Shown here piece after piece: positions 3,094 through 5,700 of a stretch of DNA of 35,421 nucleotides. The DNA lies in the IMG/VR virus record IMGVR_UViG_2751185971_000005, positions 1 to 35,421 of that record, one strand, 5' to 3'. Under the pieces are notes generated by a model. The model ran no database searches. It was not told the DNA's origin and worked only from the letters and a program-made list of their open reading frames with translations. Position 1 is the stretch's first letter. Every line of letters starts with the position of its first letter. This DNA is from a virus. Lineage: Duplodnaviria; Heunggongvirae; Uroviricota; Caudoviricetes. A program made the position numbers and the translations under genes.

Positions 3094-3165
3094 TTGGGGG
3101 TACCTCCACTAAACCGAACAGCAAATACCCCCATAAGTACCCCCATCTGACCGTAGATTTTGAGG

Positions 3166-3258: not shown

Positions 3259-3304
3259 TGGTGCCGATAATAGGAGTCGAACCTACGACCTTCGCATTAC
3301 GAAT
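3259..3304 (-). repeat. att repeat: 46-bp 3' fragment of tRNA-Thr(CGU) (anticodon loop to CCA), not a complete tRNA
   Basis: Minus-strand reading gives ATTCGTAATGCGAAGGTCGTAGGTTCGACTCCTATTATCGGCACCA (anticodon loop, T-arm, acceptor 3' strand, CCA). The sequence beyond 3304 has no D-arm or 5' acceptor strand, so the tRNA is truncated, as expected for the displaced att repeat of a tRNA-integrating element. Confidence 0.8.
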
Positions 3305-3653
3305 TATAAGAATCCACTTCTAATTCAAAGCATTACCCCATCAACACTGCGCTCACACGTCCCACCACATCAAAACATGTAAAGCCTTGCAAGCCATTGC
3401 GAGGCCTTATGTGTCTCAGTTTTGTCCCACCTTGTATTACGACTTGCATAGCCAATGAAGATAAACGTGACGACAAACGGCGCAGCAGTCTTCTTTTCCT
3501 TCATACTTTCCCCACCCAGCATGCATACCTTTATGCCATAACTGAAGTTTATGTCTGTTATGAGCGAATTGCAGACATTAACGTTTGGTTAAGGGACGGG
3601 CTGTAGCCCGTCCCAGTGAGCGAAGCTTAATTTAGTCCGTGTGCAGCGCTTTG

Positions 3654-5084
3654 TTAGCCAAAACTGATGTGATTTTTAGTTAGATCTCTATATCTCTTAT
3701 CGTTGTGTACTTTATGGAGGATCGTTTGGTTGGCGATCAAAAAATCTATAATTTCTTGAATTCTTTCGCTACGAGCATTGGCTCTTAACAAAGTCAAAAC
3801 GCTTACCATATGTTGCTGGCAGTATTTGTTGTCTAAATTCACTCGCACTTCATTAGAGTGCATTGCTATAACTGTATTGATAATGTTTTGATCGCCAAGC
3901 ATGCCAAAAAACTGATCATACAAAGGTCGTCCCGCCGGAGAAACACCAGTATTATATGGTATTCCTTTACCAACACGACAAATCAAAACTGTTTTTATAA
4001 GCTTATGAACCCTCTCTAAAGGTATGTCATTTTCAGTCTTTAAATACGAAAGAATCTTCCGCATATGAGGGGGTTCATTATAAAAGTTATCCCAAGCATA
4101 CCTAGCCTCTAAGAGATCGTCGGCATGGCCGTCCAGTGATATAATTCTAGAGTCTAATGATTGATAACGATTACCATCACAAAACGTAAAAAACTCAATA
4201 CCTAAAGCATGTTTCTCGTTGTGAAGATTGTTCTTGTATCCGTCTAGCGTCACGCCGAGCTTGTATTTTACGTTATCACTGCTTTTATTCCAGATATGCG
4301 GAGCAAAAAGAGCGATATTTTTTCTGACAACATTTCCTGTTGAATCAGCTGTATATATGCCGAAAATACTATTGAGTAGATTGTCAGTATTCTGAAGCGA
4401 CAGATCATTCAAAGGTCTTTCCATGCTATGAATTGTGGCTTCATCAAGAACATCAGTGGATCTTTTTAGATTCTCAAGGAATGATTTTATTTGTATGGCA
4501 GACGCGGACGGTTTGTCGTTCAAAATATCTTGAACGCATGTTTGGAGCCAGCCAAGAAGTTCAAAAGCATTTATGGAGTATGAATTTGGGTGCGAAGCAC
4601 CAATGTCATTCCTCATAGTCAATATATGATTGAGCTTGGTGTAAACAACGTCAGATATTAATTCAAGTTTTCGGCAAGTATTAATAAGGGTGTTGTCTTT
4701 TAAACCAGAAAGATCTTCTTCGGTAGAATAAAGCTCTCTACGTCCTCCTCCAACTGCAGCATCAAAGAACATATCGAGGCCATAAACTACTACTTTTTCC
4801 CTTAAATTCAGTACAACTTCATTCCAAACATAATTTAACGATGCATCAAATAGTCCTATAGCCGCACCAGCAACGAACTTTGATAAATATCGAGCATCTC
4901 TTTTTACCTCAGCAGGTAAAGAATCTATGAATGTGGGGAGGTTTTTTTCAATAATTTGGCGCTCAGGGAGAGAGGCAATTATATTTTCGGTCGGCAAACC
5001 AAGATAGGATAAATATCCTTCAAATTTTGTTGTATCTGTGGAAAGTACCCCTGTTCCAGGTTTTGCAATCAATTCTGAACTCAT
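3654..5084 (-). CDS. Hypothetical protein (476 aa), AT-rich orphan gene; weak HEPN-like Rx4-6H motifs
   Basis: Long ORF with AGGAA Shine-Dalgarno 8 nt upstream of the ATG at 5084; markedly AT-rich compared with neighbours; contains RNDIGASH (residues 158-165) and RDLTKNH near the C-terminus. Confidence 0.7.
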   Translation of the reverse strand: MSSELIAKPGTGVLSTDTTKFEGYLSYLGLPTENIIASLPERQIIEKNLPTFIDSLPAEVKRDARYLSKFVAGAAIGLFDASLNYVWNEVVLNLREKVVVYGLDMFFDAAVGGGRRELYSTEEDLSGLKDNTLINTCRKLELISDVVYTKLNHILTMRNDIGASHPNSYSINAFELLGWLQTCVQDILNDKPSASAIQIKSFLENLKRSTDVLDEATIHSMERPLNDLSLQNTDNLLNSIFGIYTADSTGNVVRKNIALFAPHIWNKSSDNVKYKLGVTLDGYKNNLHNEKHALGIEFFTFCDGNRYQSLDSRIISLDGHADDLLEARYAWDNFYNEPPHMRKILSYLKTENDIPLERVHKLIKTVLICRVGKGIPYNTGVSPAGRPLYDQFFGMLGDQNIINTVIAMHSNEVRVNLDNKYCQQHMVSVLTLLRANARSERIQEIIDFLIANQTILHKVHNDKRYRDLTKNHISFG

Positions 5085-5347
5085 ACGATTATTTCCTTAT
5101 CTGGTTGAAGGCTAGAGAACAGCTAACGCTTTTAGCAGGGGCGCGACGTTAGGAGCGTCCCATACCTAAACTTGTTAAGGTATTTGTGAGCAAACGCCAC
5201 CAGTATTTGGGTTTAGATCCAATACATACTTCATGCGAGTACAACCTATCCCGAATCAAGCAGGAGTCATTTCTCCCGCACTTAGGGTTTGGACATTTCA
5301 TGTTCCCTACCCATGGTGAATTCGATTCGTAATGTACGATCTTCATA

Positions 5348-5380
5348 AAGCCTTAACAATTTAATAGAAGGCTTTTTTGC
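5348..5380 (+). terminator. Orphan rho-independent terminator-like hairpin (AAGCCTT-N13-AAGGCTT followed by TTTTTT)
   Basis: Seen in sequence; oriented for plus-strand transcription, but no convincing plus-strand gene lies upstream. Confidence 0.35.
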
Positions 5381-5700
5381 CCGCAAGTGGAACATTTTTC
5401 TGCCTTCTTTCCTGATCTTTACTCACATCAAACTAACGCTGATATACCTCTATTTCAACAGGTTTTTCTGAAATCAATAAATTTGCGTCCGGCAAACTTT
5501 ATACAGCCAGTACGCGAGTTGTTCTTGATTTACTTAAGCTGGACACATGGGAATTATCCAGCGGCTTGTGCTAGTAAAAGAAGAAATTATCAGGCATTTA
5601 CCACAACGCCCAATGCCCGCTTTTGGCACAAAGCAGACGCCCACTCTCACGCGAATGCTTTGCCCTTGACTTGCCAACAACCGTATCGCTTGCTCCGCAA

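Follow-up and report, generated by a model that had tools for sequence, protein, structure and literature searches.

Results

The analyzed stretch of viral DNA (Caudoviricetes, IMG/VR record IMGVR_UViG_2751185971_000005; 35,421 nucleotides in full, hereafter the window) carries an uninterrupted coding sequence for a protein of 476 amino acids on the minus strand (3654-5084, from a program-made ORF list), as the first-pass annotation of this DNA had proposed. The good Shine-Dalgarno sequence described there is likewise in place, with AAGGA at 5094-5098 (minus strand) lying 9 nt ahead of the ATG, and alignment of the upstream regions showed the ~50 nt before this start codon to be the sole flank conserved in the copies from Pseudomonas and Aeromonas. 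Since the protein is 89% identical to these copies while synonymous sites are saturated (pS 0.83), the ORF is, on the evidence of sequence comparison, a real gene. For one pair without saturation, dN/dS was about 0.03. Purifying selection is extreme along the entire length of the protein, including both of the domains described below, and protein length is almost fixed across phyla. These substitution patterns indicate a strength of selection that would be uncommon in an immune sensor and differs from that on typical fast-evolving phage sensors. In RefSeq records of E. coli, the protein is deposited as WP_001460374 from chromosomes as well as plasmids, with the annotation "hypothetical protein."

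The gene is distinctly AT-rich, as had also been noticed, with a GC content of 0.375 (GC3 0.32), whereas the window as a whole reaches 0.509 and the flanks with the BCCT transporter and prophage genes 0.47-0.55. As a consequence of its low GC, it may be silenced by H-NS in E. coli. A GC-rich hairpin at 3593-3614 on the minus strand (9-bp stem, 4-nt loop), situated 40 nt past the stop codon and inside the mobile unit of the gene, likely marks the 3' end of its transcript as far as the sequence indicates; its T-run is weak and the terminator scan did not call it. Upstream of the gene, the orphan terminator assigned to 5348-5380 is indeed a hairpin, but with a loop of 13 nt it does not pass the terminator scan; the hairpin is located within the mobile unit, and a decayed small ORF follows immediately downstream of it. 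Scanning for promoters and terminators yielded nothing above shuffled expectation, and a search for RNA elements around the gene, between positions 3150 and 5600, gave no Rfam match at E ≤ 1.

On the side of the gene, the integrated element is bounded by an att repeat, the 46-nt 3' part of a tRNA-Thr(CGU) at 3259-3304 (minus strand). The anticodon loop (CGT), T-arm, and CCA end can be read on the minus strand, in agreement with the original assignment of the repeat. The window holds a single exact copy and, according to ARAGORN, no whole tRNA; in strain LR-06, a second copy in the same orientation adjoins the prophage integrase 43 kb away. The slot of the gene in the E. coli prophage lies between the att repeat and the tail-fiber end. 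In GF8, the corresponding slot is filled by other cargo, in SL124 it is found without the 476-aa gene, and in EC4 the gene sits alone at the end of a lambdoid prophage. Breakpoints of blastn alignments delimit a mobile unit of 2.08 kb (3553-5638, no strand assigned), which is 93-99% identical in unrelated enterobacterial contexts and recurs at the lambdoid prophage end of EC4 and in two IMG/VR contigs (L017 and L019). Many IMG/VR copies are placed within 0-7 kb of a contig end. An E. coli relative with 53% identity to the 476-aa protein (referred to as the paralogue) is located between ogr and gpD of a P2-like prophage, and a 29%-identical homologue occupies the same position. This comparison of loci across genomes bears out the earlier view of an accessory, single, mobile gene in a variable slot near att. 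The accessory, horizontally mobile, and variably slotted character that is looked for in defense genes was thus found in prophages, plasmids, and islands.

A further claim, that the gene is an orphan, does not hold. Among the scored candidates, 1,197 homologues were identified, forming 739 clusters at 50% identity; nearly all relatives comprise 470-495 aa, and all are labeled hypothetical. They are present in about 390 of 185,579 species genomes (about 0.2%), distributed over many phyla and ranging from Enterobacteria to Cyanobacteria, Firmicutes, Planctomycetota, and possibly archaea. Within E. coli, 50 out of 5,426 complete genomes (0.9%) carry the gene, 30 on the chromosome at varied positions and 20 on plasmids. 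In E. coli, Klebsiella, Shigella, and Enterobacter, a total of 50 plasmids, conjugative ones included, bear copies of at least 99% identity. Across hosts, the GC content of the gene is 0.34-0.40 versus 0.47-0.58 in the flanks. No relative was retrieved by tblastn from 50,697 sequenced phage genomes, the only PHROGs match was the unannotated phrog_27609, and a search of literature and supplements by accession and motif string returned no mention of the protein. According to these homology searches, the family is large, unnamed, and widely scattered among mobile elements.

In the predicted structure, residues ~60-190 (4515-4907, minus strand) constitute a probable HEPN domain. Helices are predicted at residues 65-76, 79-101, 145-163, and 173-188, with a helical insert at 103-139 and a loop at 164-172, resulting in a four-helix up-down bundle that is interrupted after helix 2 by this insert, the arrangement by which HEPN domains are recognized. 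The motif RNDIGASH, pointed out in the first pass at residues 158-165, is present at 4590-4613 (minus strand) and reads as a predicted catalytic motif R158-N159-D-I-G-A-S-H165 of the Rx6H type with a polar residue after the arginine. No substitution of R158, N159, or H165 occurs in alignment A1 or in A3, the latter extending down to 25% identity with the query, and of 189 full-length relatives, 187 share [ML]RNx5H. In model 2 (pLDDT 85.9), R-N ends the helix 145-163 and H165 follows in the next loop, the insert parting helices 2 and 3. The model of the N-terminal domain agrees with HEPN domains of solved structure, and its motif occupies the place usual for the superfamily. Motifs at such a helix end and loop, with 6-residue spacers and a polar residue after the arginine included, are described for HEPN proteins (PMC3710099). 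The HEPN idea originally drawn from this first motif is therefore strengthened by both its conservation and the structural match, and the HEPN fold of residues ~60-190 is well supported by alignment and model.

A conserved block in helix 2, residues 80-95 (4800-4847, minus strand), with D80, N84, W87, E89, L94, and R95 invariant in A3, is a candidate source of the auxiliary acidic residue of a HEPN active site. Conserved acidic residues in helix 2 are usual for HEPN families, typically as Ex3[KR] (PMC3710099), whereas the invariant D80, E89, and R95 in helix 79-101 show the spacing Ex5R. The second motif proposed near the C-terminus, RDLTKNH, does exist at residues 466-472, but only 27 of the 189 full-length relatives keep it; it was consequently regarded as a chance occurrence and discarded as a second HEPN motif.

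Recognized HEPN families (Pfam clan CL0291) gave nothing at cut-off for the query, 80 members, or consensus sequences, and the membership in HEPN or DUF4145 families considered earlier surfaced in Pfam profiles only as weak, sub-threshold matches to DUF4145 in 5 members. Neither the query nor 80 relatives, distant members, or family consensuses scored above threshold in searches of Pfam, NCBIfam, PADLOC, and PDB sequences. The PDB sequences gave no match at E ≤ 10 and likewise none to the alignment profile, and Foldseek against the PDB returned background solenoid matches only, all with E above 0.1.

The first reading of the sequence had recognized no other domain, thereby overlooking a helical-repeat domain of ~280 residues. 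Residues ~194-470 (3675-4505, minus strand) are predicted to form a C-terminal all-alpha solenoid (ARM/HEAT/TOG/MA3-like), the structural matches of which include the helical-repeat folds PUF/Nop9, MIF4G, and MA3. Its conserved polar residues are R254, N256, W265, N286, Y307, R313, N333, E337, and Y389. The N-terminal peptide of the protein contributes the conserved residues L30, P31, and R42.

Examination of 116 loci revealed no recurring neighbor family beyond local synteny; by this comparison, the gene is a single gene without conserved partner. An MNT nucleotidyltransferase neighbor is not conserved across these 116 loci, and nucleotidyltransferases are absent from the 25 commonest Pfam families of the neighboring ORFs. 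The small ORF upstream of the gene (5149-5346, minus strand), which does not belong to the functional unit, is a 65-codon remnant of a 159-aa zinc-ribbon gene. This gene is intact in Yersinia rohdei (L054:3457-3936), has suffered an in-frame deletion in the window, L017, and L019, and is absent from L020 and other taxa. Since 13 of the 65 residues differ between the window and L017 in surrounding DNA of about 93% identity, the remnant is free of constraint at the protein level. Being a deleted, unconstrained remnant that is missing elsewhere, it was rejected as a partner or antitoxin. By raw counts, known defense genes are only modestly frequent among the neighbors, including a few hits to GmrSD/RmrA, type II R-M, LmuB, RES, and PDC-S56 (141 ORFs from 31 loci). 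With PADLOC-DB 2.0 at E ≤ 1, the query and 7 diverse relatives gave no family match, besides a weak partial match of the 53% paralogue to PDC-M04A (E 0.009).

Discussion

Based on this evaluation, we infer a defense role for the 476-aa protein and, as parts of it, RNase activity, dimerization, autoinhibition, a trigger, and an anti-phage outcome. The protein would be an autoinhibited solo HEPN RNase acting in abortive infection or mobile-element conflict and traveling as cargo of prophages, plasmids, and islands, a reading to which we assign a probability of roughly 0.5. As a member of a family of mobile-element proteins in which a probable HEPN domain is joined to a helical-repeat domain, it makes a plausible single-gene anti-phage or conflict system, and solo prophage HEPN defense proteins are known with HepS (PMC13043305) and Tha (PMC11087260). 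The active site would consist of R158, N159, and H165, with E89 or D80 probably assisting, and dimerization would complete it, like the sites of other HEPN enzymes. In uninfected cells, the solenoid, possibly together with the N-terminal peptide (L30, P31, R42), may keep the nuclease inactive until a conserved cue binds and releases it, a cue produced while a competing phage or mobile element infects the cell. The freed RNase could then cut tRNA, rRNA, or mRNA, whereupon translation would stop and the infection would be aborted. Speaking against this reading are the missing matches to PADLOC, Pfam HEPN families, NCBIfam, and PDB sequences, the lack of relatives among the 50,697 phage genomes, the extreme purifying selection combined with a nearly constant length, and the potential silencing by H-NS.

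Only tentatively, this proposal can be extended to a founding member of an unrecognized, phylum-spanning group of one-protein immune or conflict RNases, in which a solenoid with an invariant polar pocket would gate the N-terminal HEPN domain and sense an invariant cue. Considering the extreme purifying selection on both domains, the solenoid would be expected to recognize such an invariant cue and not a fast-evolving phage protein. This cue could come from the host, as a component of its translation machinery, or from phages, as a product conserved in all of them; an RNA or a nucleotide signal would be further candidates.

The very strong purifying selection on both domains and a length almost fixed across phyla would also suit a conserved RNA-processing or turnover enzyme working for the element or the host, e.g., on element transcripts or in stress-induced decay, with the solenoid as RNA or protein specificity domain and no infection-triggered suicide. 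In the same direction point the conserved polar residues of the solenoid, suggesting one fixed ligand, the presence of PUF/Nop9, MIF4G, and MA3 among its structural matches, and the lack of a match to any known defense model. However, we consider this explanation unlikely, as a housekeeping-type function would predict more regular inheritance than the sporadic spread observed (0.9% of E. coli, about 0.2% of species), and the gene is always found on mobile or variable DNA with its foreign GC retained.

Rather doubtful is a selfish toxin or exclusion factor, which would stabilize its carrier by plasmid or prophage addiction or exclude rival elements, not phages. In HepT/MntA systems, the toxin is a HEPN domain (PMC3710099), and toxin-antitoxin genes do occur nearby: many conjugative-plasmid copies adjoin yacAB or relBE, small plasmids of Clostridium perfringens and Lactococcus carry relatives beside HicB and Phd antitoxin genes, and hok/gef adjoins the gene in the P2-like element. 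Nevertheless, no antitoxin-like neighbor is conserved in the 116 loci, and a lone toxin without an unstable inhibitor cannot addict its host; besides, such a factor differs from an abortive infection system by its trigger alone. It is improbable that the domain acts as a non-catalytic HEPN-like scaffold or regulator, comparable to MtlR or the substrate-binding HEPN of nucleotidyltransferases, with the motif serving binding instead of cleavage, because Rx4-6H is typically lost in non-catalytic HEPN lineages (PMC3710099), while R, N, and H are nearly universal here. Although the gene and the adjacent genes for a DUF2254 membrane protein and the BCCT transporter travel as a block, 99.9% identical in chromosomes and plasmids of E. 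coli, a three-gene cargo of which it would be one part is scarcely credible and already contradicted by the comparative data, which rule out both neighbors as partners, with the gene standing without DUF2254/BCCT in EC4, the pair without the gene in SL124, and no relative in other taxa having such neighbors.

Should the protein prove active in the preferred role of a triggered solo HEPN RNase, a compact one-gene system would be added to the known defense repertoire, and domain databases would gain a new HEPN family as well as a new HEPN-solenoid architecture. Its plasmid-borne copies in E. coli, Klebsiella, Shigella, and Enterobacter could in this case affect phage therapy and plasmid ecology. 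Such near-constancy of sequence and length is unusual for a solitary mobile gene and makes the trigger and substrate worth identifying.

Several known systems allow a comparison with this architecture. In DUF4145-like HEPN families (Pfam PF13643; PMC3710099), the typical fusion partner is a restriction or helicase module, in contrast to the solenoid predicted here; none of the relatives of the 476-aa protein attains the Pfam cut-off, and their consensus has no match. HepT of the HepT/MntA type VII toxin-antitoxin systems (e.g., SO_3166, PDB 5yep) has a size of only ~130 aa and is neutralized by an adjacent MNT nucleotidyltransferase, a neighbor missing here. RNase L, a eukaryotic enzyme, combines ankyrin repeats, a pseudokinase, and a KEN/HEPN domain and is activated by ligand-driven assembly. 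The coupling of a helical-repeat sensor domain to a HEPN nuclease would be shared with the 476-aa protein by way of analogy only, since RNase L is eukaryotic and differs in domain order and repeat type. The KEN domain itself is counted as HEPN (PMC3710099).

Among solo proteins, HepS of the Salmonella prophage Gifsy-1 is an abortive-infection anticodon nuclease (PMC13043305). Like HepS, the gene described here is a lone prophage gene in an accessory position without partner, encoding one Rx4-6H per chain, and by analogy its product would be expected to stay inactive until triggered. In contrast to HepS, it combines Rx6H with an extra solenoid of ~280 residues, and it shows no sequence or Foldseek similarity to chains of the PDB, in a copy that may or may not hold a HepS entry. 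Tha from Staphylococcus aureus prophages comprises 301 aa with a C-terminal HEPN domain (R265-H270) and has the cognate inhibitor Ith (PMC11087260). It is a prophage HEPN RNase whose non-catalytic domain presumably senses a phage protein, and it acts in an abortive-infection-like manner, features that the 476-aa protein may resemble. The latter differs by its N-terminal HEPN domain, its solenoid as partner domain, and the lack of an inhibitor gene conserved nearby in 116 loci. We know of no solved structure of Tha. If the solenoid indeed responds to an invariant cue, the family would follow a sensing logic unlike that of either HepS or Tha.

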